Counted from the whole stretch's first letter, positions 1 through 63,230 are shown. The stretch is 63,230 bases of DNA, filler included, from a bacterium (GCA_030615855.1; 6 parts of 6 records of this genome joined end to end with filler, not necessarily neighbours in it); one strand, 5' to 3'. The notes: generated by a model from the sequence alone, not told the origin. A program made the numbers and translations.

Positions 1-1224
1 AGAGATCACTGGCTCGGGAAAGTGCATGGTCTCTAACAAAATGGGCGCATCTCTATCGCATAATGTATCCCCGGTCTTGGTCTCCTTCAATCCTACGCAG
101 GCAGCGATATCACCAGCATAGACCTCCTCCCTATCCCGACGTTTATTGGCGTGCATCTGCAGGATCCTTCCCATCCTTTCCCTCTTATCCCGGGAGGCAT
201 TATAGATATAGGAACCAGCCTTCACACTCCCGGAATATACCCGGAAAAAGGTGAGATTCCCCACATAGGGATCGCTGGCGATCTTGAAGGCCAGGGCGGC
301 GAAAGACTCGGAGTCAGAGGCTTTCCTCTTCTCCTTACTTCTACCTATGGGATTAATACCCTCCACTGCCCGGATATCGATGGGTGAAGGAAGGTAGTCC
401 ACTATGGCATCCAAGAGGGGCTGGATCCCCTTATTCTTGATGGCGGCACCACATAGCACGGGGATGAGAGTAGCAGATAGGGTCCCTTTTCTAATCCCTC
501 TCTTCAGCAGATCCTCCTCTATCTCTTCTCCTTTTAGGTATTTCTCCATCAACTCCTCATCTGCCTCGCTTACTCCCTCAATCAGTCTCTCCCTATATTC
601 TTTTGCTTCTTCCCTAAGTTCAAGTGGGATCTTTCCTATCCTGGGCTTTATCCCTAGGTCCTCTTTTTCCCAGATAATGGCCCTCATCCTGACCAGATCG
701 ATCACTCCCTTAAAGTTCTCCTCTTCTCCTATAGGGATCTGGATGGGAAAAGCATTAGCATTGAGTTTCTCTCTCATCTCCTCTACCGCTTTTAGGAAGC
801 GAGCGCCCGTGCGATCCATCTTATTTATGAATGCCAGGCAGGGAATGCCATATCTCCTCGCCTGATGCCAGACGGTCTCTGATTGGGGTTCCACTCCCCC
901 CACGGCACAGAAGATGGCCATGGCCCCATCCAGGACTCTTAGGGATCTCTCAACTTCAACCGTGAAGTCCACGTGGCCCGGGGTATCAATGATGTTAATC
1001 CTATGGTCTTGCCAGTAGCAGGTAGTAGCCGCAGAGGTAATGGTTATTCCCCTCTCCTTCTCCTGAGCCATCCAGTCCATGATGGCTGTCCCCTCATCCA
1101 CCTCACCCAATCTGTGGCTTATCCCGGTATAGTAAAGGATGTGTTCTGTGGTGGTCGTCTTTCCGGCATCGATATGGGCCATGATCCCGATATTTCTTAT
1201 TCTTTCTAAAGGTATCTCTCTCAT
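1..1224 (-). CDS. fusA: Elongation factor G (5' part, runs off window)
   Basis: Manual translation from ATG 1224: [30 protein letters not shown]...[19 protein letters not shown]...[15 protein letters not shown]; follows rpsG. Confidence 0.97.
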
Positions 1225-1381
1225 TCTTCTCACTTTGCTCGTCGAAGTGATCGGTGAGCGGTGATCGGTAGTAGTTGGTTTACGGTGTACGGTTTACGGT
1301 TTACGGTGAAAAACGGTAAACGGTCCCGAATGAAGTGAGGGACGGGTAGACCGTTAACCTTATGTAATACGGTTCACTATC

Positions 1382-1852
1382 TTACCAGCGATAGTGGGCG
1401 AAGGCCTTATTGGCCTCTGCCATCCTGTGGGTATCCTCTTTTTTCTTTACTGCTGACCCAGTCTTCTTTGAGGCATCGAAAAGCTCCCCGGCCAATCTCT
1501 CAGCCATGGTATGCTCTCTTCTCTTCCTGGCAAAGTTTATTATCCAGCGCCGGGCCAAGGTCTCTCCCCTATCTGGTCTGACATCTACTGGGACCTGGTA
1601 GGTGGCTCCTCCCACCCTACGAGGCTTTACCTCCAAAAGGGGTCTTACATTCTCAATGGCCCTTTTAAAGAGGCTCAAGGGGTCTTGACCGCTCTTCTTT
1701 CCCACAATCTCCAAAGCCTCATAGAGTATGGATCTGGCCAGGGATTTCTTCCCCTTCAGCATGAGGCAGTTAACAAACTTCGCCACTAAGAGGTTATTAT
1801 ACTTGGGATCGGGCAGTATCTCCCTCTTAAAGACTCTCTTTCTTCTGGGCAT
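1382..1852 (-). CDS. rpsG: 30S ribosomal protein S7
   Basis: [15 protein letters not shown]...[11 protein letters not shown]...[15 protein letters not shown]; start moved to ATG 1852. Confidence 0.98.
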
Positions 1853-1948
1853 CTCACTCACTCCGTTCGTACGCAGATTACCGCAGATTATCAGCGGTAA
1901 TCAGCGTCCAATACGCCCACGCAGTAGGTAATACAAAGAAATCTGCGT

Positions 1949-2320
1949 TTATTTGGGTCTTTTCGCTCCATATTTGGAGCGACTCTTTCTCCTGTCCTCC
2001 ACTCCCATAGTATCCAGGGTTCCCCTTATGATGTGATACCTCACCCCAGGTAAATCCTTCACCCTTCCTCCCCTGATGAGGACGATGGAGTGTTCCTGTA
2101 AGTTATGGCCTATTCCGGGGATGTAGGCGGTGACCTCCATACCATTGGAGAGGCGAACCCTGGCCACTTTCCTTAGGGCACTGTTGGGTTTCTTAGGAGT
2201 AGAGGTATAGACCTTGGTACATACCCCTCTACGCTGAGGAGAGCCACCCAGGGCAGGAGTGGTGACCTTCCTCACCTGCCTCTTCCTTCCCATCCTTAAT
2301 AGTTGACCTATGGTAGGCAT
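1949..2320 (-). CDS. rpsL: 30S ribosomal protein S12
   Basis: MPTIGQL...[17 protein letters not shown]...[10 protein letters not shown]; start moved to ATG 2320. Confidence 0.98.
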
Positions 2321-2341
2321 TTCATACCTCGCTACGCTCGG

Positions 2342-2602
2342 AGTAACCAGTAACCAGTTTACAGTTTTGAAAACTACAAATTCCAATACACAAATTACAA
2401 ATCACAAACAATAACCAATGACCGAAATTACAATGACCAAAGCAACACGCTTTTGTTTGGAATTTGGGAAATTGGGATTTGGGATTTGTTTGTATTGATT
2501 CGCCTTTGGCGAAGAAATCTTCGGCGTAGCCGAATATTTGGGTGCTTGTAATTTGGAATTTATTTATTCTGGTTACTGTTCGCTGGTTACTGTAAACCTC
2601 TA
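2342..2602. repeat. Periodic inverted-repeat element with a second element nested in its loop
   Basis: Arms 2342-2367 and 2569-2602 are identical to 44853-44878 and 44889-44922; loop is 201 nt here and 10 nt there. Confidence 0.9.
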
Positions 2603-2604
2603 TT

Positions 2605-5600
2605 CTACTGTTCACTTTTTACCAGTTCTAACTCTTGGTAAACAGAGAGACCGGTTCCGGCTGGTATGAGGTGGCCCATAATCACGTTCTCCTTCAGGCC
2701 CCTTAGCTCATCCCGCTTCCCACTTGCTCCGGCCTCAGTCAAGACCCTGGTCGTCTCCTGGAAACTGGCCGCGGAGACGAAGGACTCTGTTGTCAGAGAG
2801 GCCTTGGTTATTCCCAAGAGTATGGGTTGGGCAGTGGCTGGTTTCTTCTTCTTCTTTTTTAATACCTTCTCGTTCTCCTCCCGGAATGCGGTCCGATCTA
2901 CCGCCTCACCTGCCAAGAAGCGGGTATCACCAGGATCTACGATCCTCACTTTTTTGAGCATCTGGCGGACGATGATCTCCACGTGCTTATCATTTATCTC
3001 CACACCCTGAAGTCGATAGACCTCCTGAATCTCGTTCACCAGGTAGTTCTGGAGCTCCTTATCTCCTTTGACTCTCAATATATCATGGGGGATGACGGGA
3101 CCGGACATCAGTCTATCTCCAGCTGTCACTCGATCCCCTTCATAGATCCTGAGATGCTTCCCCTGGGGAATGAAGTACTCCCGACTCTCTGTCTCTCCCT
3201 CAACGATGATCCTTCTCATCCCCCTAATTGACCCTCCGAATTTGACTACCCCATCGATCTCTGTGATGATTGCCGGCTCCTTCGGCTTCCGAGCCTCGAA
3301 GAGCTCGGCCACCCGAGGAAGCCCACCAGTGATATCCTTGGTCTTCATTATCTCTCTGGGGAACTTAGCCAAAACCTCTCCGGGAGCGACCCAATCGCCA
3401 GGGCTCACCGCAATGTGGGCCCCGGTCAGTACAGTATATCTATCAACGACCTTGCCCATCCTATCCTTAATGATGATCTCTGGATGGAGCTGGGTATGGC
3501 GATGATCGATGATCACCCTTCCTATATGTCCCGTAGACCTATCGCGCTCCTGCCTCATGGTCACTCCCTTGATGACGTCTGAGAAGCTCACCTCGCCCTC
3601 CACCTCTGCTAATAGGGGGCGGGTATAGGGATCCCACTCCACCAGGAGTTGACCTTTCTTCACCCTCTTCCCCTCTTTCTCTTTCAATAGGGCACCATAA
3701 AAGACCCTCTGGGTCTGAATCTCTTCCCCCTCCTCATCCAAAAGGCTTATTCTTCCATTGCGGTTTAAGACCACAGTCTCTTTATTCTTATTCACTACGT
3801 TCCTCAGGTTGTAGTACTTTACTCTTCCCTCTTCCTTGGCCAGGATCTTCGATTGGGCGATTACTCTGGATGCCGTTCCTCCGATGTGGAAGGTCCTCAT
3901 GGTAAGCTGGGTTCCTGGTTCACCAATGGATTGGGCAGCGATGACCCCCACCGCCTCTCCCAAGTCAACCAACCTTCCCGTGGATAGGTTCCTTCCATAG
4001 CACTTCTGGCAGACCCCATACCTCGCCTCACAGGTTAGGACACTTCTCACCTTGACCTCATCTATGCCTGCCTCCTCAATGATTTTTGCCTTCTCCTCCG
4101 TGATCTCCTCACTCCTTCTGCAGATAGAATCGCCCAGTCTGGGGATGGTGATATCCTCCTGGGCTACCCTCCCAATGATCCTATCCGATAGCGTGACTAT
4201 GATCTCCTCTCCCTCCAGTATGGGACCTAAGGTAATCCCGTTGAGCGTTCCACAATCCTCTTCGTTGACAATCACCTCCTGGGCAACATCCACCAATCTC
4301 CTGGTGAGATACCCAGAGTCCGCGGTCTTCAGGGCGGTATCGGCCAATCCCTTCCGCGCTCCATGGGCGGATATGAAGTACTCTAAGACGGTCAGTCCCT
4401 CCCGGAAGTTGGCCGTGATGGGGGATTCTATGATTTCACCACTTGGTTTGGCCATCAGTCCCCTCATGCCCGCCAGCTGCCTCACCTGCTCCTTGGATCC
4501 CCGGGCTCCAGAGTCAGCCATCATCAGGATGGGGTTGAACTTCGTCCTTCCCTTGGGTGGAACCCTCAATCCCTCAATCATCCAGTCCGCCACCTTGTCT
4601 GTGGTATGGGTCCAGATGTCGATGGCCTTGTTATATCTCTCACCATCGGTGATGATCCCATCCTTATACTCTCCCTCCACCTTCCATACCGCCCTCTTGG
4701 CCCTTTCCAAAAGCTCTTTCTTTTCCTTGGGCACCTTCATATCATCCAGACCAATAGAGATCCCGGCCTGGGTGGTAAATTGGAAGCCCAATTCCTTTAG
4801 GTTATCCAAGAGGAGGATAGTTCTATAGCGTCCTAATCTTTGGAAGCAGGAAAGGATGAGGTTGACGAGGTCCTTCTTTACTATTTCCTTATTTATAAAT
4901 CGGAGCTCCTCTGGTAGAATCTGGTTGAAAATTACCCTTCCGCAGGTGGTAGCTACAATCTCCTCACCGATCTTTACCTTTATTTTGGCATGAAGGAAGA
5001 GTGCTCCATGTTCATGGGCGATGAGGACTTCCTCGCAACTTGAAAATCTCTTACCCTCTCCCTTCTCTCCAGAAAGCTCCTTTGTAAGATAGCATAGGCC
5101 CAGAACCATATCCTGAGTGGGGGTAACTAAAGGCTTTCCATGGGCCGTGGACAGAATATTATTTGGAGCGAGCATCAAGAGCCGGGCCTCGAGCTGGGCC
5201 TCACTAGATAATGGGACATGGACCGCCATCTGGTCCCCATCGAAGTCAGCATTAAAGGCTACACAGACCAGGGGATGAATTCTGATGGCGTCTCCTTCCA
5301 CAAGCAGCGGTTCGAAGGCCTGAATCCCTTGGCGGTGCAGAGTGGGGGCACGATTGAGGAGTATGGGATGCTCTGAGATTATCTCCTCCAATATGTCCCA
5401 GACCTCACTGGTCTCCTGGGCCAGGAGCTTCTTGGCTCCCTTAATGGAGGTGACATAACTCTTCTCCTTTAATCTTTTGATGATGAAGGGCTCGAAGAGC
5501 TCCAGAGCCATCTTCTTGGGCAATCCGCACTGGTGGAGCTTGAGCTCTGGTCCGATGACGATGACCGAGCGCCCCGAATAGTCGACCCTCTTACCCAATA

Positions 5601-8600
5601 GGTTCTGCCTGAACCTCCCCTGCTTCCCCCTAAGCATATCGGATAGAGACTTTAAGGGTCTTCCCCCAGCACCCTTAACCACCCTTCCCCTCCTTCCATT
5701 ATCAAATAAAGCATCCATTGCTTCCTGGAGCATCCTCTTCTCATTCCTCACGATGACCTCTGGGGCGCGAAGCTCCATGAGCTTCTTTAACCTATTATTC
5801 CTATTAATTACCCGGCGATAGAGGTCGTTCAGGTCGCTTGTGGCGAACCTTCCCCCGTCCAAAGGAACTAAGGGTCTTAGGTCAGGCGGGATGACGGGAA
5901 GGACTTCTAGGATCATCCACTCCGGCCTATTCCCAGAGGCCAGGAAGGACTCCACGATCTTCAATCTCTTACTTAGCTTCATCCTCTTCTGGGCAGAGGT
6001 AGTCCTTCTCATGTTATTCTTGATCTCCTTGGCAAGAGCAGCCAAATCCACCTCCTCCAATAGTTTCCTGATGGCCTCTCCCCCTATCCCGGCCTTAAAG
6101 GAGGTACCATACCTCTCTCTATAATCCTGGTACTCTTCCTCAGTCAAGAGCCTCTTCTTGGCCAGCTTGGTCATGCCGGGATCGGTGATGATGTACTCCT
6201 CAAAGTAGAGGACTTTCTCTAACTGTCTCTGGGATAACCCGAGAAGAGCTCCCATTCTACTGGGTATCCCCTTGAAGTACCAGATGTGGGAAAGAGGAGT
6301 AGCCAACTCGATGTGGCCCATCCTAACCCGGCGCACAGAAGACTTGGTAACCTCTACCCCGCAGCGATCACATACTATCCCCTCATGCTTCATCCTTTTA
6401 TACTTTCCACAGTAGCACTCATAGTCCTTGGTGGGACCGAAAATCCTTTCGCAGAATAGACCATCCCTCTCCGATCTGAAGGTACGATAATTTATGGTCT
6501 CTGGCTTCTTGACCTCTCCCTGGCTCCAGAATTGGATGACCTCTGGCGAGGCGATCTTTACTCTTATGGCTTCATACCCACCTGCCCGTCCCTGTCCGTC
6601 CGACAGGCGGGCGGCAGACGGAGGCGAGGTAGGGGTTGCTGGCGTCCTCTTCTTCCTCTCAAGTTCGACATTCAAGGTCAGTCCCATCAACTCCTTGACC
6701 AGGACATTGAAGGACTCGGGAAGGGTAGGGGGAAGGGTGTCTTCTCCCTTGACAATGGCCTCGTATATCTTCGTTCTCCCAACGATGTCATCGCTCTTTA
6801 CGGTGAGCATCTCCTGCAGGGTATAAGCGGCCCCATAGGCCTCCAGGGCCCAGACCTCCATCTCCCCAAACCTCTGTCCTCCAAACTGGGCCTTCCCTCC
6901 CAGGGGTTGCTGGGTAACCAGGGAGTAAGGACCTATTGCCCGGGCATGGATCTTATCCGCCACTAGGTGGGCGAGCTTCATCATATAGATATAGCCCACC
7001 GTGACCTCTTGATCGAAGGGCTCACCCGTCCTCCCATCATATAATATGGTCTTCCCGTTCTCTGGAAGGCCGGCCTTCTTCAAGAGCTTTTTGATCTCCC
7101 CCTCTCTTGCTCCATCGAAGACTGGAGAGATGAACTTCAGCCCCAAGGCTTGAGCAGCCCAGCCCAGGTGGGTCTCCAGTATCTGGCCCACATTCATCCT
7201 TGAGGGAACCCCAAGGGGGTTTAAGAGTATCTCCACTGGGGTGCCATCTGCCAGATAGGGCATATCCTCCTCAGGCAGGATCTTGGCGATCACTCCTTTA
7301 TTCCCATGCCTTCCTGCGATCTTATCTCCCACAGAGAGTTTCCTCTTCTTGGCTACGAAGACCTTGACCATCTTCAAGATCCCTGAGGGGAGTTCATCTC
7401 CCTTCTTGGCCCTCTCCAGGTCCCGGTCTCTTCTTCTCTTGATGGCCTCTATCTTCTCCTTCAGGATCTCTTCTATCCTCTCAATCTCCTCTTTTCTCTT
7501 CAGTCTCTTAGTCTCTCTCTTGACCCTCTCAGAGAGTCTTTTTATCTCTCTCTCCGCCTCTCTCTTTATCCCCTCTAACTCCACAGATTGGGCCTCTCTC
7601 TCCTTCTTAGTCTTGGGCCTCTTCTTCTTAGAGAAGATCTTGACATCGACCACTATCCCCTCATCCCCAGGGGGGAAGCGAAGGGAGGCATCCCTTACTT
7701 CTGCTGCCTTCTCTCCAAATATGGCGCGCAGTAGCTTCTCCTCTGCAGAGAGCTCGGTCTCTCCTTTAGGGGTGACCTTACCGATCAAGATATCCCCTGG
7801 TTTGACAGCGGCCCCGATACGCACGATCCCCTCCTCATCCAGATTGACCAGGGCCTCCTCTGCTACGTTGGGGATGTCTTTAGTAATCTCCTCCTTCCCC
7901 AATTTAGTATCCCGGGCTAAGAGCTCATACTCCTCTATATGGATAGAGGTGAACTTATCATCCTTCACCACCCTTTCACTTATTAGGATAGCATCTTCAA
8001 AGTTATATCCCTCCCAGGGCATGAAGGCCACTAAGACATTTCTTCCCAAAGCGAGTTCCCCCTTGTCTACTGCCGGACCATCAGCAATGATCTCTCCCCT
8101 CTTCACTCTCTGGCCTCTCTTCACGATCGGCCTCTGATGGATGCAGGTATCCTGATTGGACCTGATGAACTTATCCAGGAGATAGGTATCATGGGTCTCG
8201 AGGCTGAAGGAAGGCTCCTCTATTCGGATGATGATCTTATCTGCGTCTACCTCTTCTACTACTCCCTCCCTTTTAGCCAAAACGACCGCCCCGGAGTCCT
8301 GGGCTACCTTCTCCTCTATCCCGGTTCTCACCAAAGGGGGCTCAGGAACCAGGAGGGGAACTGCCTGGCGCTGCATATTGGAACCCATAAGAGCCCGATT
8401 GGCATCATCGTGTTCCAGAAAAGGAACCAAGGCAGCCGAGACAGAGACCAACTGTTTAGGCGAGATGTCCATGTAATCGATCTCGCTTGGGGTAACCTTA
8501 GGGAAGTCACCCCTCCTCCTTGCCGAGACTCTTTCCTCCAAGAAACATCTCTTACTGTCGAGTCGGGCATTGGCCTGAGCGATAGTGTACTCGTCCTCCT

Positions 8601-10440
8601 TATCTGCAGAGAGGTACTCGATCCTCTCAGTCACCCTTCCCTTCTCTACCTTGCGATAGGGAGATTCAATGAGGCCGAACTCATTCACCTTGGCATAGGT
8701 GGAGAGGGAGTTGATGAGGCCGATGTTCGGGCCTTCTGGAGTCTCTACAGGACACATCCTGCCATAGTGAGTATGGTGGACATCCCGCACCTCAAAGCCT
8801 GCTCTCTCCCGAGATAATCCTCCCGGGCCTAAGGCAGAGAGTCTTCTCTTATGGGTGAGCTCTGCTAAGGGATTCGTCTGGTCCATGAACTGGGAAAGCT
8901 GACTCCTGCCAAAGAAATCCCTTATTAAAGCTACCAGGGGATTGGCGTTTATCAGGTTGTGGGGCATGGCGCTCTTTAGATCCATAAAGGACATCCTTTC
9001 CCTTATCCCCCGCTCTACCCGGAGGAGCCCAATCCTCACCTGGTTGCTCAAGAGCTCTCCCACGCTCCTGGCCCTCCTATTCCCCAGGTGATCGATATCA
9101 TCGATGGTTCCCTTTCCATACCTTAAATCAACCAGATATCTGACAGCCCCGATAATATCCTCTCTGGTCAGGGCTCTCTCGCTCATGGGAACATTCAGGC
9201 CCAGCTTCTTATTGAGTTTATACCTTCCCACCTTGGCTAGGTCATATCTTCTCTTATCGAAGAAGAGCCTCTCCAAAAGCCTCTTAGCCCCTTCTGCTGA
9301 GGGTGGTTCACCAGGACGAAGCCTTCTATAGACCTCTATCAAGGCCTCCCTCTGGGTAGTGGTGGAATCCTTCTCCAGGGTATTCCTGATGGCCAGGTTG
9401 GCCCTTACCTCATCAATGACCACGGTCCGCACCTTCTTTATCCCTGCTTTTGCCATTTTACTCAGGGAAGTAGGGGTGACCTCCTGGTTAGCTTCTAAGA
9501 TGACCTCTTTCGTCTTTTCATCTATCGCTTCTCTTGCCAAAATCTGGCCCAGGGCCTTGGGCAACTTGGCTAGGGGGGAAATGACCTCTATCTCCTTTAT
9601 CCCGGCCCCCTGGATCTTCTCCAAGAGAGGTGGGGTAACTTTCTCTCCAGCCGAGAGGATCTTCTCACCCGTCTGCCTATCCCTAACGGTTCTTATGGCC
9701 ACCTTTCCTAAGGCTCGAGAGAACCTGGGCCCTTTGACCTTCAGGATCTTGGGGGGTTCTTCTACCTTGATCTCTCTCGTGGGATAGAAGAAGGATAGTA
9801 TTTCTTCATTCCTCTGGTAGCCCAGGGCGCGCAAGAAGGCAGTGACTAAGAGCTTTCTCTTGCGATCTATCCGGGCATAGACCAGGTCATTGACATCGAG
9901 TTCAAACTCCAGCCAACCTCCTCTGTAGGGAATGATGCGGCAGGAATAGAGGTGTTTGCCATTGGGATGAACAGAAAAAGTATAGGCCACCCCTGGGGAA
10001 CGATGGAGTTGGCTCACTACCGCCCGCTGGGCGCCATTGATGATGAACGTCCCCTGAGGGGTCATGCGGGGTATCTCCCCAAGATAGACCTCCTCCTCCT
10101 TGATCTCCTTTATCTGCTTCTTCCCCGCCTTATCTTCTTCTCTTATCACTAGCCTCAGGATTACCTTAAGGGGCAGGGTATAGGTCAGGCCTCTATCTCG
10201 ACATTCCCTTATATTATACTTCAGCTCCCCCAACCTATAGCCTACAAATTCTAAAAAGCTAAGGCCCTGGGTATCATAAATGGGAAAGATTTCTCTAAAG
10301 ACGGCCTCCAGACCCTGAGGCTTGCGAGAAAGAGGACCCTTGCCTGGCTGCAAGAAATCCTCATAGGATTTCTTCTGGATCTCGATGAGGTTCGGTATTT
10401 CCAAGACCTCTGGGATCTTGGCAAAGCTTACCTTCTTCAT
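2605..10440 (-). CDS. rpoBC: Fused RNA polymerase beta-beta' subunit
   Basis: One 2611-aa ORF with RpoB motifs ([31 protein letters not shown]) then RpoC motifs ([28 protein letters not shown]); no stop or Met at the junction. Confidence 0.95.
6581..6622. repeat. In-frame 42-nt nested palindromic insert at the rpoB/rpoC junction
   Basis: cctgcccgtc[cctgtccgtccgacaggcggg]cggcagacgga, i.e. one 21-mer inside another. Confidence 0.75.
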
Positions 10441-11149: not shown

Positions 11150-11677
11150 TTATCGCTCAATCCCCTTAAGAATGAGAATTAAATTTCTTATATTTCCTTT
11201 GAGAACATTTATCAGGCCCGGTATGGGTGATTTTATTATAGAAGCGACCTGGGAGAGAAGTCCCTCATAGGAAGGGAGAAGAGCGAGCTCTCTAATCCTT
11301 TCCCTATCGATAAGCCTCCCCTCAACTATCCCCACCTTAATCTTCAGATTCTCATGTTCCTTGCTAAAATCGGTCAATATTCTCACTCCCGCCAGAGGGT
11401 CTTCATAACCAAAGGCAATAGCAGTGGGCCCCCTCAGATAAGGAAGGAGCCCTTCTTCATATCTTTCCCCTTTGACTGCCAGGCGGGCCAAGGTATTCTT
11501 AATCACCTCATACTCAATCCCTTCACTCCTTAACTTCTTTCGCAGATCGCTCATCTCTTCCACATCCAGACCACAATAATCAGAGAGAACGATGCTTGAA
11601 GCAGAATGCATCCTCTCCTTTATCTTCTCGACCTTCTTCTCCTTGGCTATTCTCTGTGGTTTCTTCTCTTCTGCCAT
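11150..11677 (-). CDS. rplJ: 50S ribosomal protein L10
   Basis: DYCGLDV..LRKKLR..VIKNTLA..GPTAIAF; lies between rplA and rplL. Confidence 0.95.
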   Translation of the reverse strand: MAEEKKPQRIAKEKKVEKIKERMHSASSIVLSDYCGLDVEEMSDLRKKLRSEGIEYEVIKNTLARLAVKGERYEEGLLPYLRGPTAIAFGYEDPLAGVRILTDFSKEHENLKIKVGIVEGRLIDRERIRELALLPSYEGLLSQVASIIKSPIPGLINVLKGNIRNLILILKGIER

Positions 11678-12390
11678 TAGAGGCCTTCCTTGGTTAGTCT
11701 TTTGATTAGATCCTGGGTATCTATTCTGATGCTCGGCCCCATGGTGGAAGATAAAGTGGCCTTCTTCAGGTACTGACCTTTGGCGGTGGCCGGTCGGGAC
11801 TTAACCACCGCCCTGAGAAGGGTGAGGAGATTCTCCGAAAGGTCTTCTTCCTTGAAAGACTTCTTACCGATGGAGAGATGCAAAATACTCTGGCTATCCA
11901 TCCTATACTCTATCCTGCCCGCCTTGGCCTCTTTCACCGCCTGAGCTATCTTTAGAGTGACGGTGCCCAATTTGGGATTGGGCATAAGACCTTTGGGTCC
12001 CAGAATCCTTCCCAGCCGAGCAATCTCCTTCATCATATCTGGAGTAGCGATGGCCACATCGAAATCAAGCCAGCCCTTATTGATTTTCTCTATCAATTCT
12101 GTGGTTCCCACGAAGTCCGCCCCTTCCCCCTTTGCTTCCTTCTCCTTCTCTCCCTTAGCAAAGACCAGGACCTTTATCTTCTTTCCTCGACCATAAGGAA
12201 GGACTACCGTCCCCCGAACCATCTGAGAGGAATCCTTGGGGTCCACCCCTAATCTGATATCAATATCGATCGATTCATCGAACTTAGCGGGGGCAACTTT
12301 CTTGATTAGGGTGAACGCTTCCTCTAGAGGATAAGTCTTCCCCTTCTCTATTTTTCCTAAGGTTTCTTTATATTTCTTCCCCCTCTTCAC
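11677..12390 (-). CDS. rplA: 50S ribosomal protein L1 (GTG start)
   Basis: KFDESIDIDIRLGVDP...VRGTVVLP...LGPKGLMPNPK...SSTMGP. Confidence 0.97.
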   Translation of the reverse strand: MKRGKKYKETLGKIEKGKTYPLEEAFTLIKKVAPAKFDESIDIDIRLGVDPKDSSQMVRGTVVLPYGRGKKIKVLVFAKGEKEKEAKGEGADFVGTTELIEKINKGWLDFDVAIATPDMMKEIARLGRILGPKGLMPNPKLGTVTLKIAQAVKEAKAGRIEYRMDSQSILHLSIGKKSFKEEDLSENLLTLLRAVVKSRPATAKGQYLKKATLSSTMGPSIRIDTQDLIKRLTKEGL

Positions 12391-12506
12391 CCCGCCCCTC
12401 CCTCTATAACTATAACTTCACAAAATTGACTTATAAAAAACATAAAAATTACCTCCTTATAAATTCTGTCTAGCAATGTTTTAATAAAAGGAGGGGCGGG
12501 GTTCAT
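12387..12506 (-). mobile_element. ATGA-targeted inverted-repeat element in the rplA start region, carrying a 39-codon upstream ORF
   Basis: Sense strand ATGA-accccgcccctcc...ggaggggcgggg-TGA; removing the element restores ATGAAGAGG. Confidence 0.75.
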
Positions 12507-12530
12507 CCTACCTCGCTCCGCCCTTCTTTT

Positions 12531-12989
12531 CTATTCTTCTTCTTTCCTACTTTCCTGAATGATTTCGGTTACTACCTCAATGCCCATGGACCTGGCTGTT
12601 CCCTCCACAATCCTTACTGCCCGCTCCAAGTCTGGAGCATTCAGGTCGGGCATCTTTATTTTAGCGATCTCTCTTACCTGGGCCTTGGTTACCTTAGCGA
12701 TCTTCTCCTTGCCTGGGGTACCACTTGCCTTGGCCAATCCCGCGGCCTTCTTTAGTAAGATGCTCGCGGGTGGGGTCTTGGTGATGAAGGTGAAGGAGCG
12801 GTCCTTGTAGACCGTGATCACTACTGGGATGATCATCCCCTCCTCCTTCTTGGTTCGCTCATTGAAGGCCTTACAGAACTCCATGATATTCACCCCATGC
12901 TGGCCAAGAGCCGGGCCCACGGGAGGGGCAGGATTAGCTGCCCCGGCCGGGATCTGGAGTTTTATCTTGGCAGCTATCTCTTTGGCCAT
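12531..12989 (-). CDS. rplK: 50S ribosomal protein L11
   Basis: [34 protein letters not shown]...GTARSMG. Confidence 0.98.
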
Positions 12990-14399: not shown

Positions 14400-14524
14400 N
14401 NNNNNNNNNNNNNNNNNNNNNNNNNNNNNNNNNNNNNNNNNNNTTAATTAATTAANNNNNNNNNNNNNNNNNNNNNNNNNNNNNNNNNNNNNNNNNNNNT
14501 ACCTACCTAAAAGGAGGGAGAGCG

Positions 14525-14879: not shown

Positions 14880-15491
14880 ATGAAGAAAGGATTGGTTGTT
14901 CTGGGGGTTTTGACAATTATGGGGTTCTTTCTCTCGGGTTTGCTTTTTGCTCAACAGGCTTCTAGTATCTCTTACGACCAGATAGTAACCTCTCCAACCC
15001 AGGGAACTATAACTTCTAAGGTCTGGGTAAAGGGAGAGAAGATGAGGATCGAGCAGATGGCACAAGGTCAGAAGATGGTCACCCTAATGAAGGAAGGAAC
15101 CATGTACCTCTACTATCCTGCTCAGAAGATGGCCATGAAGATGGATGTCAGTGCTGGGGCTGGTCAGGGAAGTGAGAATCCCAAGGATACGATGGAATAC
15201 CTCAAGAGTATAGAAGCTAGGCCACTAGGTCAGGAGAGGATCGAAGGAAAACTATGCGATGTCTACCAGATTACCTATCCCCAGACGGGAGCAAGAGGTA
15301 AGATATGGGTCTGGAGGGAGAAGAACTTCCCCTTGAAATCTGTGATGACCGTTGGCGGTGAAACGATAACTACAAGATACAGAAATATCCAGATGGGTAT
15401 TAATATCCCAGACAGCTACTTTGAACTTCCTCCAGGAACTCAGATAACGGATATGTCCCAGATGATGCCTGGTCTCATTCTCCAAGAGTGA
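14880..15491 (+). CDS. Exported LolA-like/DUF4412-type protein
   Basis: Signal peptide; KVWVKGEKMRIE, GKLCDVY, IPDSYFELP. Confidence 0.65.
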   Translation: MKKGLVVLGVLTIMGFFLSGLLFAQQASSISYDQIVTSPTQGTITSKVWVKGEKMRIEQMAQGQKMVTLMKEGTMYLYYPAQKMAMKMDVSAGAGQGSENPKDTMEYLKSIEARPLGQERIEGKLCDVYQITYPQTGARGKIWVWREKNFPLKSVMTVGGETITTRYRNIQMGINIPDSYFELPPGTQITDMSQMMPGLILQE

Positions 15492-16348
15492 AGAAATTCT
15501 TAATCGCTATTATCTCCTTATTCATCCTCTCTTTCTCTGTCCAAGCTCAGGAACTCAATATAAGGATAGAGCCCAAAAGCGTGGGACAGGGAGAGACGCT
15601 GGTAATTTACCTTGAATCTCCGGGGACCTTGAAGGATTTAGGGGTAGAGTTTTTGGGAAAAGAGATAAGGTTCTATGAAATAGGCAAAGATAGATATCGG
15701 GCCATCCTTGGAATACCTCTCACTACTGAACCTGAAAGATATAACATTCTCTTCAGAATCAAGACTAAAAGGGGCTTGGGGATTGAGTGGAAGGAAACGG
15801 TTCAAGTAAAGAAGATAGTTTTTAAGAAAGAGGTCCTCTCTATCCCTCCGGAAAAGAGTAAGCATCTCACTTCTAAGTATTTGAGAAGGGAGGGGAAGAG
15901 GATAGGAAAAACATGTAAGAAGGAGGAGGGGAATCAGCTCTGGGAAGGAAGATTTATCCTTCCGGCAGAGGGGAGGATCTCTTCTCCCTTTGGAGCCTAT
16001 CGGGTTTACAATCGAGGAAAAGCATCCTGGAGGCATAAAGGAATAGATATAGCAAACAAGGAAGGAACGGAGGTTGTTGCTCCTAACTCTGGAATAGTCG
16101 TCATATCAGAGGATATGAAGGTTCATGGAGGAACGATAATCATATCCCATGGCCAGGGGGTCTTTTCCATTTTCTCCCATTTCAGAGAACGGCTTGTCAA
16201 AAAGGGAGAGGGAGTGGAGAGAGGCCAGTTAATCGGGACCATGGGCCAGACGGGTTTGACTACTGGTTCTCACCTGCACTGGGGACTATGCGCCTCTGGG
16301 GTAGTGGTTAATCCTCTGGAGTGGACGAAGAGAAAAATCGGAGATTAG
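15488..16348 (+). CDS. M23 family metallopeptidase
   Basis: Signal peptide; HKGIDIA and TGSHLHWG motifs. Confidence 0.9.
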   Translation: MKKFLIAIISLFILSFSVQAQELNIRIEPKSVGQGETLVIYLESPGTLKDLGVEFLGKEIRFYEIGKDRYRAILGIPLTTEPERYNILFRIKTKRGLGIEWKETVQVKKIVFKKEVLSIPPEKSKHLTSKYLRREGKRIGKTCKKEEGNQLWEGRFILPAEGRISSPFGAYRVYNRGKASWRHKGIDIANKEGTEVVAPNSGIVVISEDMKVHGGTIIISHGQGVFSIFSHFRERLVKKGEGVERGQLIGTMGQTGLTTGSHLHWGLCASGVVVNPLEWTKRKIGD

Positions 16349-17688: not shown

Positions 17689-18905
17689 TTATCGCTGATC
17701 TCCACATTCATTCCAAGTATTCTCGAGCCACTTCTAAGAATATGAATATTGATGGAATAACTAAGTGGGCTAAGATAAAGGGGATTGATCTATTGGGAAC
17801 TGGAGACTTTACCCATTACCAGTGGCTAAGCGAACTAAAGGCCCATCTGAAAGAGGTCTCCTACGGTCTCTATGAATGTAATGGGACCCACTTCTTCCTG
17901 ACTGGGGAAGTATCGAGCATCTACTCTCTGGGAGGAAGAGTACGTAAAATTCATACTATAATCTTTGCCCCCACTTTTCATGTTGTAGAGAAGATAAATA
18001 AGGAGCTTTCCAAGATTGGAAATCTGGATGCTGATGGAAGGCCCATCTTGGGGCTTCCCGCAAAGGACTTGGTGGAGATCGTTCTGGGAATATCAAAGGA
18101 TTGTTTCATCATTCCGGCCCATATCTGGACTCCCTGGTTTTCCCTATTCGGGGCCAATTCGGGATTCGACGATATAGAAGAATGCTTTGGAGAATATACC
18201 AAGAATATCCATGCCTTGGAGACCGGTCTATCGAGTGATCCCCTGATGAACTGGACGTTATCAAAACTGGATAGGTTTGCCCTCATCTCTAATTCTGATG
18301 CTCACTCCCCAGAGAATCTGGGAAGGGAGGCAAACATCTTTAACTGTAAATTAGATTATAAAGAGATAATTGAGGCTATCAAGAAGAAGGATAAGGATAA
18401 GTTCAAGGGAACGATAGAGTTCTTCCCTGAGGAAGGGAAGTACCACTTCGATGGGCACCGAAATTGTGGAATAACCTTTTCTCCCAAGGAAACCAAGGCA
18501 CATAATAATATCTGCCCCAAATGCAAAAGGCCTCTTACCATTGGAGTATTGCATCGGGTGGATGAACTGTCAGATAGAGAATTAGGGTTTAAACCAAAAG
18601 CCGCCATTCCCTTCCGGCACTTAGTTCCTTTGAGGGAGATCATTGCTGTTTCTATAGATAAGACCCGCACTTCAACAGCGGTCAAAAAGTTATACGATTA
18701 CCTGGTTAATCACTTTGGAAGCGAATTTCGGGTGCTTTTAGATATCCCCATTGAAGATTTAGACAAGGTTCATTCTAAAGTGGCAGAAGGGATTTCCCGG
18801 ACAAGGGAGGGAAAGATAAAGGTTGAGCCAGGATATGATGGGGTTTATGGGAAGGTAGAGATATTTGAAAAAGAGGAAGGGGCCAAGCAGATAAGCCTCT
18901 TTTAA
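17685..18905 (+). CDS. PHP-domain endonuclease Q family protein
   Basis: ADLHIHSKYSRATS, GTGDFTH, PAHIWTPWFS, ETGLSSD, SNSDAHS, GKYHFDGHR, CPKC, PGYDGVYG. Confidence 0.88.
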   Translation: MIIADLHIHSKYSRATSKNMNIDGITKWAKIKGIDLLGTGDFTHYQWLSELKAHLKEVSYGLYECNGTHFFLTGEVSSIYSLGGRVRKIHTIIFAPTFHVVEKINKELSKIGNLDADGRPILGLPAKDLVEIVLGISKDCFIIPAHIWTPWFSLFGANSGFDDIEECFGEYTKNIHALETGLSSDPLMNWTLSKLDRFALISNSDAHSPENLGREANIFNCKLDYKEIIEAIKKKDKDKFKGTIEFFPEEGKYHFDGHRNCGITFSPKETKAHNNICPKCKRPLTIGVLHRVDELSDRELGFKPKAAIPFRHLVPLREIIAVSIDKTRTSTAVKKLYDYLVNHFGSEFRVLLDIPIEDLDKVHSKVAEGISRTREGKIKVEPGYDGVYGKVEIFEKEEGAKQISLF

Positions 18906-18906
18906 A

Positions 18907-19006
18907 ACACGGATAGACACAGATAACAACACGGATAGACACAGATTTATCCGTGATTATCCGTGTATTTAACCCCAAACAGTAAGCAAAACAAAAAAAT
19001 CCGTGT
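18907..19006 (+). repeat. ACACGGAT/ACACAGAT...ATCCGTG element (short allele)
   Basis: First ~59 nt recur at 19389-19447; relatives near 20220, 20874, 23480, 27510 and 40605. Confidence 0.9.
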
Positions 19007-19022
19007 ATAAGGAAGGATGGAG

Positions 19023-19214
19023 ATGGAGTGTAAGCAAGAGGAGAACAGAGCGAAATGTAACTGTACCTATGAGCCCTGTGATAAGAAGGGGATCTGTTGT
19101 GAGTGCATCGCCTATCACTGGAGGAATAAAGAACTTCCTGCTTGTTTCTTCCCAAATGATGTGGAAAAGACCTACGATCGTTCCATAGCACGCTTCATCA
19201 CCTGCTACAAATAG
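19023..19214 (+). CDS. Small Cys-rich protein (DUF6485-like)
   Basis: [21 protein letters not shown]...LPACFF...TYDRS. Confidence 0.75.
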
Positions 19215-19311
19215 AAAGTCAGGTGATCAGGTTATCGGGAATTCCCTGATACTCTGCATTCTGAGCATCGCGAAGAATCTAGCCAGCTTGTCTGGCGTCT
19301 ATCCTAAATCT

Positions 19312-19386
19312 GGGGGCGTAGTTCAGAGGGAGAACGCTGCGTTCGCAACGCAGAGGTCGCGGGTTCAAATCCCGCCGCCTCCACCA
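19312..19386 (+). tRNA. tRNA-Ala (CGC)
   Basis: GGGGGCG/CGCCTCC acceptor with G3:U70; CTGCG TT CGC AA CGCAG anticodon arm; encoded CCA. Confidence 0.97.
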
Positions 19387-19388
19387 CA

Positions 19389-19606
19389 ACACGGATAGAC
19401 ACAGATAACAACACGGATAGACACAGATTTATCCGTGATTATCCGTGGTATTTTATGAGCAAAGTGAATAAAACAAGGTTCTGCGAAGCAGGTTCTTATT
19501 TAACCCCAAACAGTAAGCAAAATAAAAAAATCCGTGTCCAAAGTTTATCCGTGCTAATCCGCGTCAAATAAGCATTCGCAGTAAGCAAAATAAAAAAATC
19601 CGTGTC
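19389..19606 (+). repeat. ACACGGAT element (expanded allele) directly after tRNA-Ala
   Basis: Copy of the 18907 element plus an internal insert (~19448-19496) and a duplicated right end. Confidence 0.85.
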
Positions 19607-20523: not shown

Positions 20524-20883
20524 ATGAAGGATATTTCTAACCTCTTCAGTCAGACCCATTCCAATCTTATCCGCGATATCATGGACAAAGGGGGAGTGGT
20601 CTTGGGAATGAAAGCGAAGAACTTCGCTGGAGTCCTATTAGAGAATGAGGCGCTTGCTTTAGAGATAGAGAAGAGATTAGAAGAGACAACTGGGATTAAG
20701 GGCTACATCTCCACAGACGAACTCCCCAGGTATGGGATCTCGGCTGAAGAGAGGGAAGAGATTGAAAAGGCCTTCGGAGTACAGAAGGGGGATATTGTCA
20801 TCCTCATCGCCGAAGAGAAGAAGAAGGCCCAGAAGGCCCTGAAGATCGTCGACGAAGAAATCGCCAAACATAGACACGGATAA
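20524..20883 (+). CDS. Stand-alone GatE-type GAD/insertion domain protein
   Basis: GGVVLG..NFAGVL..GIKGYISTDELPRYGIS.EE..I...D.VILIA resembles the archaeal GatE insert domain. Confidence 0.6.
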   Translation: MKDISNLFSQTHSNLIRDIMDKGGVVLGMKAKNFAGVLLENEALALEIEKRLEETTGIKGYISTDELPRYGISAEEREEIEKAFGVQKGDIVILIAEEKKKAQKALKIVDEEIAKHRHG

Positions 20884-20976
20884 ACACGGATAACGACACG
20901 GATAAACACGGATTAAATCAGTGCTAATCCGTTTTAGTTAATCAGTGATAATCCGTGTAACAAGGAGGTGATAAGT

Positions 20977-26991: not shown

Positions 26992-27507
26992 ATGATTAGC
27001 TGTCGCAAAGTTAAAAAGTGGATGGTTGACTACCTGGAAGGAACCCTTTCCGAGAAGGAAAAGGCTCTCTTTGAAGAGCATTTGTCAAAATGCTCCCAGT
27101 GTGCCCAGGAGGTAAAGGCCTTGGTGAAGACTCAAAGGTTAGTAAGGCTGAAGGTAAGGGAAGAGATGCCCGAAGGCTTCTGGACCCATTATCTGCCTAG
27201 ACTGAGAAGAAGGTTGGAAGAAAAACCACTCCCCAGGCTGGCGTGGCGACCGGTTCCTGCCTTAGCCCTTGCCACGGCAACTGCCCTAGTTTTACTCGTA
27301 GTAGTAGCCATTAGTCTATTGAGAACTCCCAGCCTTAATCTGGAGAATCTTCCCAGAGAGGTTCTGGTAGAAGAAGTGATGGCCTCTAATTCTGAACTCG
27401 ATTATTTCATTGCCGAATCCTTTGAACCAGAAGAGATTGCTCAGGCTCTGATTCCTCAAGAGATGCTCAATTCTTTGATAGACAGTAACCAGGAATTATC
27501 ATTATGA
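26992..27507 (+). CDS. Zinc-finger (ZAS/zf-HC2) membrane anti-sigma factor
   Basis: HLSKCSQC motif plus a TM helix; follows the ECF sigma. Confidence 0.88.
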   Translation: MISCRKVKKWMVDYLEGTLSEKEKALFEEHLSKCSQCAQEVKALVKTQRLVRLKVREEMPEGFWTHYLPRLRRRLEEKPLPRLAWRPVPALALATATALVLLVVVAISLLRTPSLNLENLPREVLVEEVMASNSELDYFIAESFEPEEIAQALIPQEMLNSLIDSNQELSL

Positions 27508-27590
27508 ACTTTATCCGTGCTAATCCGTGTTTTTGAGCTAACACAATAAGCAGTAAAAAAGAATCCGTGTCTAAAAGGGAGGTGAGAAGT

Positions 27591-35639: not shown

Positions 35640-35894
35640 TCAATAAAAATTGTTTGGNNNNNNNNNNNNNNNNNNNNNNNNNNNNNNNNNNNNNNNNNNN
35701 NTTAATTAATTAANNNNNNNNNNNNNNNNNNNNNNNNNNNNNNNNNNNNNNNNNNNNTATCAGAATGAGAATTCAGAATATCAGATTTCAGATTCAATCT
35801 GGCCCTCTGATAACTGACCCTCTCCATCTGGTGCTCTGGTAATCTGGTATTCTAATTACACTAGTCGCGCAACCCTTCAACGTATGCCGTAAGA

Positions 35895-40563: not shown

Positions 40564-40699
40564 GCGCAGATTAACGCAGATCAAAACGCAGATGATCGCA
40601 GATAACAACACGGATAGACACGGATATCAGACATCAGAAGTTAGATAGTTCTATTGTCTTATGGTCGTATGGTCTAAATAAAGAAAAGGAGGATAGAAA

Positions 40700-42952: not shown

Positions 42953-43052
42953 NNNNNNNNNNNNNNNNNNNNNNNNNNNNNNNNNNNNNNNNNNNNTTAA
43001 TTAATTAANNNNNNNNNNNNNNNNNNNNNNNNNNNNNNNNNNNNNNNNNNNN

Positions 43053-47755: not shown

Positions 47756-47855
47756 NNNNNNNNNNNNNNNNNNNNNNNNNNNNNNNNNNNNNNNNNNNNT
47801 TAATTAATTAANNNNNNNNNNNNNNNNNNNNNNNNNNNNNNNNNNNNNNNNNNNN

Positions 47856-50786: not shown

Positions 50787-51604
50787 TGGATTGGCGTTTT
50801 ATTCAAGATAGTTATTACGGTGCCTATACCAATATGGCTATAGACGAGGCTCTACTTCAAAGTGAAGTACCAGTAGTGAGATTTTATAGATGGAGACCAC
50901 CTGCCATCTCCGTTGGTTACTTCCAGAAATTAGAAGAAGAGATAGATTTAGCAGAATGTAAGAGACGGGGAATAGACTATGTGAGACGCATTACTGGCGG
51001 GAAGGCGGTCTTGCATGATAGGGAATTGACCTATTCTTTTGTCATCTCTCAAGAATTGATGCCCAAGAGCATCACAGAATCCTATAAAGCCATTAGTCAA
51101 GCAATCTTAACTGCCTTAAGAAACTTGGGTCTCAAGGTCGAAATGAACCCCGCACCTTTAAGCAAGGGCAGAGTAAACATCAAAAGGTGCGGGGTGAAAG
51201 AGAAGATCTCTCAGGCCCAAAAATCCTCCCTCTGTTTTGATACCCCTTCTTATTATGAAATTATAGTCAACGGTAAAAAGATTGTTGGCTCTGCCCAGGT
51301 GAGGAAGAATGGTAAAATCTTGCAACACGGAAGCATTCTCATTGATATAGATATAGAGAAGATGTGTTCTCTCTTTAAGGGAGGCGGCAAAATCTCTCAA
51401 GTGCAGGAAAAAGTTACCTCATTGAATAATGAGTTGGAAAAGGAAATAGAGTTTAAAGACCTCGCCCCCGCACTTAAAAAAGGCTTTGAAGAAAACTTCA
51501 ATATCAAGTTAATCCCTGATGAATTGACAAGAAAAGAAAGTGTCCTTGCTCAAGAGATAGCGGCCACAAAGTTCAGCACAAGAAAATGGAACTATCTTCG
51601 ATAA
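50786..51604 (+). CDS. Lipoate-protein ligase / octanoyltransferase (LplA/LipM family)
   Basis: NMAIDEALL, RRITGGKAVLH, KKIVGSAQ, LQHGSI. Confidence 0.92.
   Translation: MDWRFIQDSYYGAYTNMAIDEALLQSEVPVVRFYRWRPPAISVGYFQKLEEEIDLAECKRRGIDYVRRITGGKAVLHDRELTYSFVISQELMPKSITESYKAISQAILTALRNLGLKVEMNPAPLSKGRVNIKRCGVKEKISQAQKSSLCFDTPSYYEIIVNGKKIVGSAQVRKNGKILQHGSILIDIDIEKMCSLFKGGGKISQVQEKVTSLNNELEKEIEFKDLAPALKKGFEENFNIKLIPDELTRKESVLAQEIAATKFSTRKWNYLR
51147..51197 (+). mobile_element. ATGA-targeted inverted-repeat element, in frame (51 nt)
   Basis: ATGA-accccgcaccttt...aaaggtgcgggg-TGA; 13-bp perfect inverted ends; removal gives VEMKEK. Confidence 0.85.
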
Positions 51605-58648: not shown

Positions 58649-58749
58649 ANNNNNNNNNNNNNNNNNNNNNNNNNNNNNNNNNNNNNNNNNNNNTTAATTA
58701 ATTAANNNNNNNNNNNNNNNNNNNNNNNNNNNNNNNNNNNNNNNNNNNN

Positions 58750-58890
58750 AAAGAGACGAACTCAACTCCGTATTCTTCAGCCCTCTCCCTGGAAGGGTGA
58801 AAAGTCCAGGCAATTACCTTCATGCCAATCCCCTTTGCCAGTCTCGCCAGATGACCCCCGATCGCTCCCAAACCCACTATCCCTAAAGTT
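58750..58890. repeat. 141-nt contig-terminal direct repeat
   Basis: Identical to 63090-63230. Confidence 0.97.
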
Positions 58891-62713: not shown

Positions 62714-63230
62714 CTATTTAACCATATTAATGGGGCTTCCTTTTAGGAAATTGATAACATTGTCTACTGCCATCTGGGCTCCTCTCTCGATAGTTTCCGG
62801 GGTCATTCCTGCTGAGTGCGGAGTCAGGACCACATTTTTCAGCTTAAGAAGAGGATCATCGGGTGGGATGGGCTCTTCATGAAAAGTATCCAGGCCAGCC
62901 CCGGCGATCTTGCCATAAGTTAAGGCATCTATTAGAGCTTGTTTGTTAACTATAGCTCCTCTGGCCGTATTCACCAGGATAGCGGTAGATTTCATCAGCT
63001 CGAACTGTCTCTTCCCCACAAGATCAGTGGTCTTATCAGAGAGTCTTAAGTTCACTGAAATGACATCGGCCTGCTTGAATAGATCATGGAAAGAGACGAA
63101 CTCAACTCCGTATTCTTCAGCCCTCTCCCTGGAAGGGTGAAAAGTCCAGGCAATTACCTTCATGCCAATCCCCTTTGCCAGTCTCGCCAGATGACCCCCG
63201 ATCGCTCCCAAACCCACTATCCCTAAAGTT
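62714..63230 (-). CDS. D-2-hydroxyacid dehydrogenase, 3' part
   Basis: LVNTARG, GAGLDTF..EP, LTPHSAG; joined gene is 957 nt (318 aa). Confidence 0.9.
   Translation of the reverse strand, partial: TLGIVGLGAIGGHLARLAKGIGMKVIAWTFHPSRERAEEYGVEFVSFHDLFKQADVISVNLRLSDKTTDLVGKRQFELMKSTAILVNTARGAIVNKQALIDALTYGKIAGAGLDTFHEEPIPPDDPLLKLKNVVLTPHSAGMTPETIERGAQMAVDNVINFLKGSPINMVK

Follow-up and report, generated by a model that had tools for sequence, protein, structure and literature searches.

The window analyzed here is a 63,230-nucleotide stretch of bacterial DNA (GCA_030615855.1) that joins at least six binned contigs end to end. On its minus strand, on which all coordinates of this site are read, the gene for ribosomal protein L1 (rplA) follows that for ribosomal protein L11 (rplK), and a 112-nucleotide element with inverted ends is located at the rplA start codon. 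The best explanation, to which we give a probability of approximately 0.7, is that a mobile hairpin entered the TGAA at the start of rplA and supplied the gene with a new Shine-Dalgarno (SD) sequence and a new start codon. The old start would now open an upstream open reading frame (uORF), from which ribosomes would be handed over to rplA by translational coupling. The positions of all features are given in Table 1.

The spacing from the rplK TAG to the old ATG is 24 nucleotides, and ..GGAGCGAGGTAGG directly precedes this ATG. The element begins with CCCCGCCCCTCC and ends with GGAGGGGCGGGG. Its terminal inverted repeats (TIRs) are 13 nucleotides in length and perfect, and the only two mismatch-free matches to the 13-nucleotide arm in the window are the element's own two arms. 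It is short and transposase-free, with no gene beyond the 39-codon uORF. The stop of the uORF and the start of rplA overlap as GTGA at 12387-12390.

A sequence-only reading of the window had described an element with inverted ends at the rplA start, a stop-free 39-codon frame opened by the old ATG, and a TGA overlapping the GTG that now starts rplA. It had further proposed that the end of the element and this TGA rebuild the start codon. Each of these points was recovered: TGAA is present on both sides of the element, the uORF peptide is identical to the one quoted, the GTG opens an L1 ORF of 237 amino acids, and the last G of the element with the TG of the right TGAA forms the GTG. The same reading placed the insertion at ATGA. 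The location at the start codon stands, but the duplicated target is the four-nucleotide TGAA. It is read as TGAA, and not as TGA or ATGA, because copies elsewhere that are flanked by TGAG or TCAA share the fourth base on both sides.

The RNA of the element region is predicted to fold into one long hairpin with a ∆G of −49.6 kcal/mol and a z-score of −5.05; none of 200 shuffled sequences was as stable. The helix in this fold reaches beyond the 13-nucleotide arms. No Rfam family reached its threshold at the rplA site.

Judged by sequence comparison, the element at the rplA start is an insertion. The closest complete relative of the L1 gene (in G002, 85% protein identity) reads ..gatagtATGAAAAGAGGGAAGAAG and contains no element, which agrees with the earlier expectation of a plain start in relatives. 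Contigs of four public runs were also aligned to the rplA region. Related-strain contigs in runs X2 and X3 join position 12399 to position 12535, so that 135 nucleotides are skipped, with 12 other letters between. These contigs diverge from the rplA of the window by 25 of 400 and 20 of 124 letters, and the empty site therefore belongs to related strains and is not a polymorphism within a strain. A contig of run X1, which is possibly the source sample, covers 12000-12845, element included, and differs from the window once. None of the listed runs that contain this DNA is registered as RNA.

A chance inverted repeat or an assembly artefact might be considered, as the window is a binned assembly of joined contigs. 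The X1 contig (with the same reservation as to its source), the stability of the fold, and dozens of copies with the same ends and flanks in four other genomes leave this explanation a negligible probability.

Three further pairs of filled and empty sites were found between the window and G001, a sister species with 81-96% DNA identity to the window (Table 1). One empty site, at window 15485-15492, is the counterpart of the element at G001 C6:8204-8252; there, the stop of one gene and the start of the next overlap naturally as GTGA. The rplK-rplA junction is unassembled in G001, where contig C35 breaks off approximately 105 nucleotides before the site and rplK was not found. A locus of G003 (L003, 1-68) lies on a contig that opens with part of the rplA interior in inverted orientation, fused to rplA; it contains no junction and is probably an assembly chimera.

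G001 was also the genome used for a census of the family, which covered all 91 contigs (1.25 Mb). The 33 loci examined in G002-G004 do not form part of this census. Matches to the element ends number in the dozens in three related genomes. The GTDB phylum of G001, a candidate phylum, consists of five species genomes only, and a strict TGAA-flanked pattern had 21, 11, 4, 7, and 0 matches in these genomes and none in the controls. A relaxed inverted-repeat pattern gave 62 pairs in G001 and 0 for the reversed control.

Identical four-nucleotide flanks are present in 50 of 87 candidate pairs of G001. These are TGAA (36), TCAA (8), TGAG (3), and TTTA/TAAA (3), the last of which resemble ordinary 26-nucleotide terminator hairpins. 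Element lengths range from 25 to 181 nucleotides, and the copies form about nine subfamilies or singletons, whose A+T-rich interiors are unrelated. The nearest paralogue of the rplA element is located at G001 C41:465-600 (84% over 90 nucleotides). Mini-copies of 26 or 53 nucleotides are nested in larger copies, each with its own TGAA duplication. Subfamily interiors have a single orientation relative to the TGAA strand, which would fit a strand-specific, hairpin-recognizing mechanism and likewise selection.

With its short length, TIRs, fixed-length duplication, many dispersed copies, and empty sites in relatives, the rplA element has the anatomy of a bacterial miniature transposable element of the inverted-repeat type (MITE). 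A second copy in the window lies within the gene for an LplA-type lipoate ligase, at an internal ATGAA, between TGAA flanks at 51144-51147 and 51195-51198. It adds 51 nucleotides (3n) in frame within the catalytic domain of the ligase (PF21948, E 7e-45). This sole internal copy agrees with the sequence-only reading, which had predicted lengths of 3n inside genes.

In 51 of the 91 G001 contigs (661 kb), a search for long TIR-bounded elements (320-6000 nucleotides) returned only unrelated neighboring copies. A 75-nucleotide hairpin copy occurs with the same non-duplicated flanks at G001 C9:12691, C10:10884, C47:9110, and C55:103, three of them near contig ends. It was considered as an insertion sequence and rejected, as it belongs to a repeat of approximately 125 nucleotides. 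At G001 C42:7802-7903 (L172), the right arm of a 102-nucleotide apparent copy codes on the other strand for G-G-A-G-F at the N-terminus of an NAD-epimerase-like protein, and the apparent copy is preceded by a second, diverged copy of the first 12 codons of that gene. This element seems to have landed beside, or captured, sequence like its own end.

The location of copies was examined after orienting each TGAA- or TGAG-flanked copy with TGAA on the top strand. A copy was counted as start-like when the base before the left TGAA completes ATG, GTG, or TTG, the upstream frame closes within 30 codons, and an ORF of at least 75 codons runs from the rebuilt codon. Start-like copies make up 24 of the 36 TGAA-flanked copies in G001, compared with 603 of 11,735 (5.1%) other TGAA sites (binomial P 8e-23). 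The count becomes 29 of 41 after adding TGAG copies, the two window copies, and copies with an ORF running off a contig end.

Among these 29 copies, the old start is ATG in 22, GTG in five, and TTG in two, and an SD-like motif is present upstream of it in 26. The rebuilt start is GTG in 18 copies and ATG in 11, the latter because one subfamily has the ends T...A instead of C...G. The genes behind start-codon copies are unrelated. Two start-codon copies in G001 are 3n in length and lengthen the N-terminus of the protein. The remaining 12 of the 41 copies are mostly nested mini-copies, plus one in-frame internal copy, and none of the eight TCAA-flanked copies in G001 is located at a start.

Targeting and the survival of harmless insertions may each be the source of this bias, and both fit the census. 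Active targeting of SD-ATGAA sites by the mobilizing enzyme would be compatible with the explanation preferred here. The enrichment over random TGAA sites is approximately 13-fold, and the element end, GGAGG-N6-G-TGAA, resembles an SD sequence and start. The TCAA-flanked, nested, and internal copies nevertheless lie off starts, and as a compact genome contains few harmless TGAA sites, survivorship alone could produce the bias. Active targeting is therefore considered possible but somewhat improbable.

The reading frame of the inserted sequence is biased in the 24 long start-codon copies of G001 and the window, where long is defined as at least 75 nucleotides. The length of the element plus its target site duplication (TSD) is 3n+2 in 19 copies, 3n+1 in four, and 3n in one. 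In 17 of the 24, the uORF that begins at the old start crosses the whole element and has as its stop precisely the TGA that overlaps the new start. Across the element, 18 of 24 copies have an open frame 0, and frames 1 and 2 are each open in 0 of 24; of the reverse frames, 14 of 72 are open. A length of 3n+2 and an open uORF at start codons had both been anticipated from the window sequence.

In the largest subfamily, coupled members occur in seven lengths (82, 100, 106, 112, 121, 136, and 139 nucleotides), all of one frame class, and retained nested insertions add 30 or 57 nucleotides. As far as these copies indicate, this pattern is beyond shared ancestry. At the loci examined in G002-G004, coupling is seen in seven of 11 long copies, two orthologous pairs among them. 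One orthologous copy of G002 and G003 is identical at 93 of 103 positions without a gap, and its uORF of 36 codons is intact in both genomes. In the first 600 nucleotides of the gene behind it, third codon positions are only 76.5% identical, and the element is thus under evolutionary constraint.

The preferred explanation would account for these patterns as follows. A non-autonomous, hairpin-forming element of 112 nucleotides would have entered the TGAA spanning the rplA start (ATG|AA) and duplicated it. Its right arm, GGAGG-N6-G, together with the duplicated TGAA forms an SD sequence and a GTG-AAG start. The L1 protein sequence is unchanged: the first two bases of codon 2 are preserved in the duplicated TGAA, and the last base of the element restores the start. 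The old SD and ATG stay to the left of the element and open a uORF in frame through both hairpin arms. Ribosomes from rplK or from the old SD would translate this uORF and melt the hairpin of approximately −50 kcal/mol, which if left unmelted would bury the new SD and start. They would terminate on GUGA and then, we infer, reinitiate on rplA. Termination and reinitiation through the uORF would explain the conservation of frame. In short hairpins, a stop approximately 21 nucleotides upstream would still place the ribosome on the stem. The proposal of the sequence-only reading that the element is tolerated at the start by GTGA coupling is supported by the comparison, with translation itself being what we infer. 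All of the comparative checks suggested in that reading gave the predicted outcome.

The predicted folds of the 29 start-codon copies are consistent with buried new starts. The SD region takes part in base pairing in 27 of them and the first base of the rebuilt start in 28; long copies fold with a mean energy of −47 kcal/mol.

Several observations weigh against coupling as a general account. Only 11 of the 29 predicted folds leave the old start entirely unpaired, and as the old AUG lies right at the base of a highly stable helix, initiation on the uORF could be hindered. The exact overlap is missing in seven of the 24 long and in all five short start-codon copies, yet these are kept before long ORFs. 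Their uORFs stop earlier, later, or in another frame, so that coupling at the overlap is not obligatory everywhere. Kinship within the approximately nine subfamilies or singletons means that the 17 coupled copies represent fewer independent events. The fixed orientation of interiors could also stem from the mechanism of insertion and not from selection.

The copies retained without exact overlap also bear on whether the rebuilt start is self-sufficient, with the element-borne GGAGG recruiting ribosomes directly to the GTG and the uORF being an unused by-product of the old ATG. The right-arm SD is canonical and its six-nucleotide spacing is ideal. This explanation is unlikely given that the SD and new start are nearly always paired in the predicted folds. 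The opening of frame 0 but of neither other forward frame, and the restriction of lengths to one frame class, would also be hard to account for if the uORF were unread.

A domesticated regulatory leader is less likely still. The hairpin and the proline-rich start of the uORF (M-N-P-A-P-P) would in that case tune L1 synthesis, possibly in response to the availability of ribosomes or EF-P or to L11 translation. Every uORF opens with AAC CCC GCN CCN codons, and orthologous copies are more conserved than the synonymous sites of the gene behind them, as a leader of this kind would suggest. However, the common opening codons are dictated by the terminal repeat, whose left arm supplies them, and need no regulatory reason. 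The copies also stand before unrelated genes, and the rplA copy is missing from close relatives.

The family is probably mobilized by a small GIY-YIG nuclease. A 272-nucleotide copy flanked by TCAA (G001 C46:32931-33202) contains a 77-amino-acid ORF between CCCCGCCCCC-type ends. Its product is a small, single-domain protein whose residues 1-61 match GIY-YIG (PF01541, E 6.9e-11). When metagenome contigs were scanned with this protein, 12 loci were recovered, of which the closest four (L253-L256) have 66-77% identity. All four lie between the same ends, CCCCGCCCCCATTTT...AAAATGGGGGCGGGG, and their surroundings differ from one to the next; each totals 289-298 nucleotides and contains a TATAAT-like box and an ATG of its own. 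In these four and in the C46 copy, the dispersed hairpin repeat stands on either side of the GIY-YIG gene. The nuclease-bearing copies share their first 9-10 terminal bases with the family ends, and a 130-nucleotide start-codon copy at G001 C48 retains approximately 28 residues of the nuclease N-terminus.

These full-length copies of 272-298 nucleotides, with their shared ends, make the GIY-YIG nuclease the likely driver of the element, although such nucleases are not a known class of transposase. The transposase search covered DDE_Tnp_1 and Y1_Tnp; in the five genomes of the phylum, which are incomplete, neither DDE_Tnp_1 nor Y1_Tnp (PF01797) was found, and the Y1_Tnp control matched six of 14 known genomes. 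Neither elements nor a homologue were found in G005 with the 77-amino-acid query. Homologues with 38-49% identity in G001-G004 (L248-L251) are stand-alone genes of approximately 90 amino acids next to tRNA genes and not within element ends; they lie among hairpin repeats of different sequence. The 77-amino-acid protein has only generic GIY-YIG N-terminal matches in NCBIfam and PDB.

Two points count against this link. It rests on shared ends, one remnant, and co-occurrence in four of five incomplete genomes, and the flanks of L253-L256 are not all clean TSDs (TAAA/TAAA once, mixed in three). We also rejected the possibility that the host ATG serves to translate a full-length nuclease. Each of the five full-length copies has an ATG of its own after the TATAAT-like box, and the frame from the host ATG is closed or out of frame in all five; only the C48 remnant is in frame.

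At slightly short of even odds, the elements are offspring of a self-contained transposon of 272-298 base pairs that consists of two ends, a TATAAT-like box, and a GIY-YIG nuclease of 77-85 amino acids. They would now be translationally transparent start-codon parasites with a 3n+2 uORF under purifying selection, through which ribosomes pass to the host gene. They would also be entrenched, because their imprecise loss would destroy the start of an essential gene.

Table 1. Positions of the features discussed, in window coordinates unless G001 is named.
Feature	Position	Strand	Basis
rplK (ribosomal protein L11), gene upstream of rplA	12531..12989	-	ORF list and sequence; stop TAG at 12531-12533
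Old rplA Shine-Dalgarno-like GGAGCGAGG, now used by the uORF	12511..12519	-	sequence
Old rplA start ATG, now uORF start	12504..12506	-	sequence, ORF list; empty site in G002 = ATGAAAAGAGGG
Left TGAA of the four-nucleotide target duplication	12502..12505	-	sequence and flank census
MITE-like element, 112 nt, inverted ends CCCCGCCCCTCC / GGAGGGGCGGGG, interior 69% A+T	12390..12501	-	repeat search, census, fold
GGAGG in right arm, new SD 6 nt before rebuilt GTG, paired in the predicted hairpin	12397..12401	-	sequence, fold
Rebuilt rplA start GTG (last G of element and TG of right TGAA)	12388..12390	-	sequence, ORF list
Right TGAA; its TGA (12387-12389) is the uORF stop, overlapping GTG	12386..12389	-	sequence, ORF list
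uORF, 39 codons, from old ATG across the whole element to the overlapping TGA	12387..12506	-	ORF list
rplA (ribosomal protein L1), 237 aa, starting at GTG	11677..12390	-	ORF list; PF00687, E 1e-66
Second window copy, 47-nt hairpin at internal ATGAA of LplA-type lipoate ligase gene	51148..51194	+	census, site empty in G001
Filled site (49-nt element) and its empty counterpart	filled, G001 C6:8204-8252; empty, window 15488		
Filled site and its empty counterpart	filled, G001 C6:22192; empty, window about 32,560, at ATGAATAA		
Filled site and its empty counterpart	filled, window 51148; empty, G001 C44		
N...TTAATTAATTAA...N spacers (five) between joined contigs	14400-14499, 35658-35757, 42953-43052, 47756-47855, 58650-58749		

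Other features of the window were recorded. The rpoB and rpoC genes are fused in one ORF of 2611 amino acids just downstream of rplL (2605-10440, minus strand). Other short repeats, with ACACGGATAGACACAGAT-type and TTTATCCGTG-type words, are present in spacers at 18887-19605, 20854-20958, 27507-27570, and 40566-40625. The last contig has identical 141-nucleotide ends (58750-58890 and 63090-63230), implying a 4,340-bp circle or a tandem duplication. A 2-hydroxyacid-dehydrogenase-like ORF is split over these ends, which makes an assembly artefact or duplication as likely as a plasmid.

The arrangement at rplA shares features with several known systems. NTGA stop/start overlaps in operons support translational coupling, and the stop TGA of the uORF likewise overlaps the G/ATG of the next ORF. 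Unlike in operons, the upstream ORF here is created through a mobile element and supplies no product of its own. REP sequences are extragenic and lack a target duplication. REP/RAYT (REPIN) and IS200/IS605-derived elements resemble the present family in their hairpins, specific flanking tetranucleotide, fixed orientation, and probable single-strand handling. They differ in that the five incomplete genomes of the phylum yielded no Y1 transposase and in that the copies are located in start codons with a TGAA duplication.

Bacterial MITE families include Correia/NEMIS of Neisseria, ERIC, RUP, and Nezha. In the general features given in part of one review (Delihas 2011, PMC3184786), bacterial MITEs are like the rplA element in being short, non-coding, and dispersed, with TIRs, a fixed short duplication, RNA hairpins, and empty sites. 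The rplA-type element differs in that it is located mainly in start codons and not in spacers, brings an SD together with a start codon's first base, and keeps an open 3n+2 uORF. Its candidate driver is also a GIY-YIG nuclease, with no DDE (DDE_Tnp_1) or Y1 transposase found in the five genomes.

Repeats that bring a ribosome binding site and ATG, Neisseria REP2 and the Borrelia IR, are described in the same part of that review (Delihas 2011, PMC3184786). As described there, REP2 has no TIRs and brings a promoter and a whole ATG, while the rplA element splits an existing start, gives the first base only, and leaves the old start as a uORF. In-frame insertion into genes is reported there for Rickettsia palindromic elements (RPE) and others. 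Compared by these descriptions, the 51-nucleotide addition in the lipoate ligase gene is like an RPE, a palindromic repeat tolerated in coding sequence if in frame. The rplA copy, unlike an RPE, is not translated into the host protein; it is 3n+2, out of frame, and ends at the stop/start overlap. Within that part of the review, no repeat is recorded that splits a start codon and hands on ribosomes via a uORF. Full-text searches, with subscription journals largely outside their reach and supplements excluded, returned no description of inverted-repeat elements splitting start codons.

The nuclease-bearing copies are closest in layout to the Ssn nucleases with NTS/SRM hairpin repeats (Chenal et al. 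2025, PMC11893778). In that article, the layout is called IS-like, mobility is only hypothesized, and a role in natural transformation is reported; start codons and target sites are mentioned 0 times each. As described there, a small single-domain GIY-YIG gene lies between hairpin repeats that are also dispersed in the genome, as in the nuclease copies here. The likeness of the 77-amino-acid protein to the Ssn nucleases, whose cd10448 clade includes SsnA of N. meningitidis, is one of layout. The 77-amino-acid query had no match in three Neisseriaceae genomes, a result that is uninformative on the link to SsnA.

The rplA-type element is MITE-like, with an unusual and coherent way of life, for which both the translation mechanism and the driver are proposed from sequence. 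The present family ties small GIY-YIG nucleases between hairpin repeats, whose mobility is only hypothesized in print, to a family with clear insertion footprints. If the proposed origin is true, the self-contained transposon of 272-298 base pairs would be among the smallest autonomous mobile elements known. Leaders composed of a uORF and a hairpin stand before about 2% of genes, and annotators will mis-call the starts of these genes or infer gene-specific regulators. The same copies provide a natural repeated experiment on termination and reinitiation at NTGA overlaps. A mobile element can occupy essential genes of very small genomes without inactivating them, so that a lethal target, the start codon, becomes a safe and self-preserving one. 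The rplA case and dozens of sister copies suggest a route by which a genetic parasite can enter essential genes without the death of its host.

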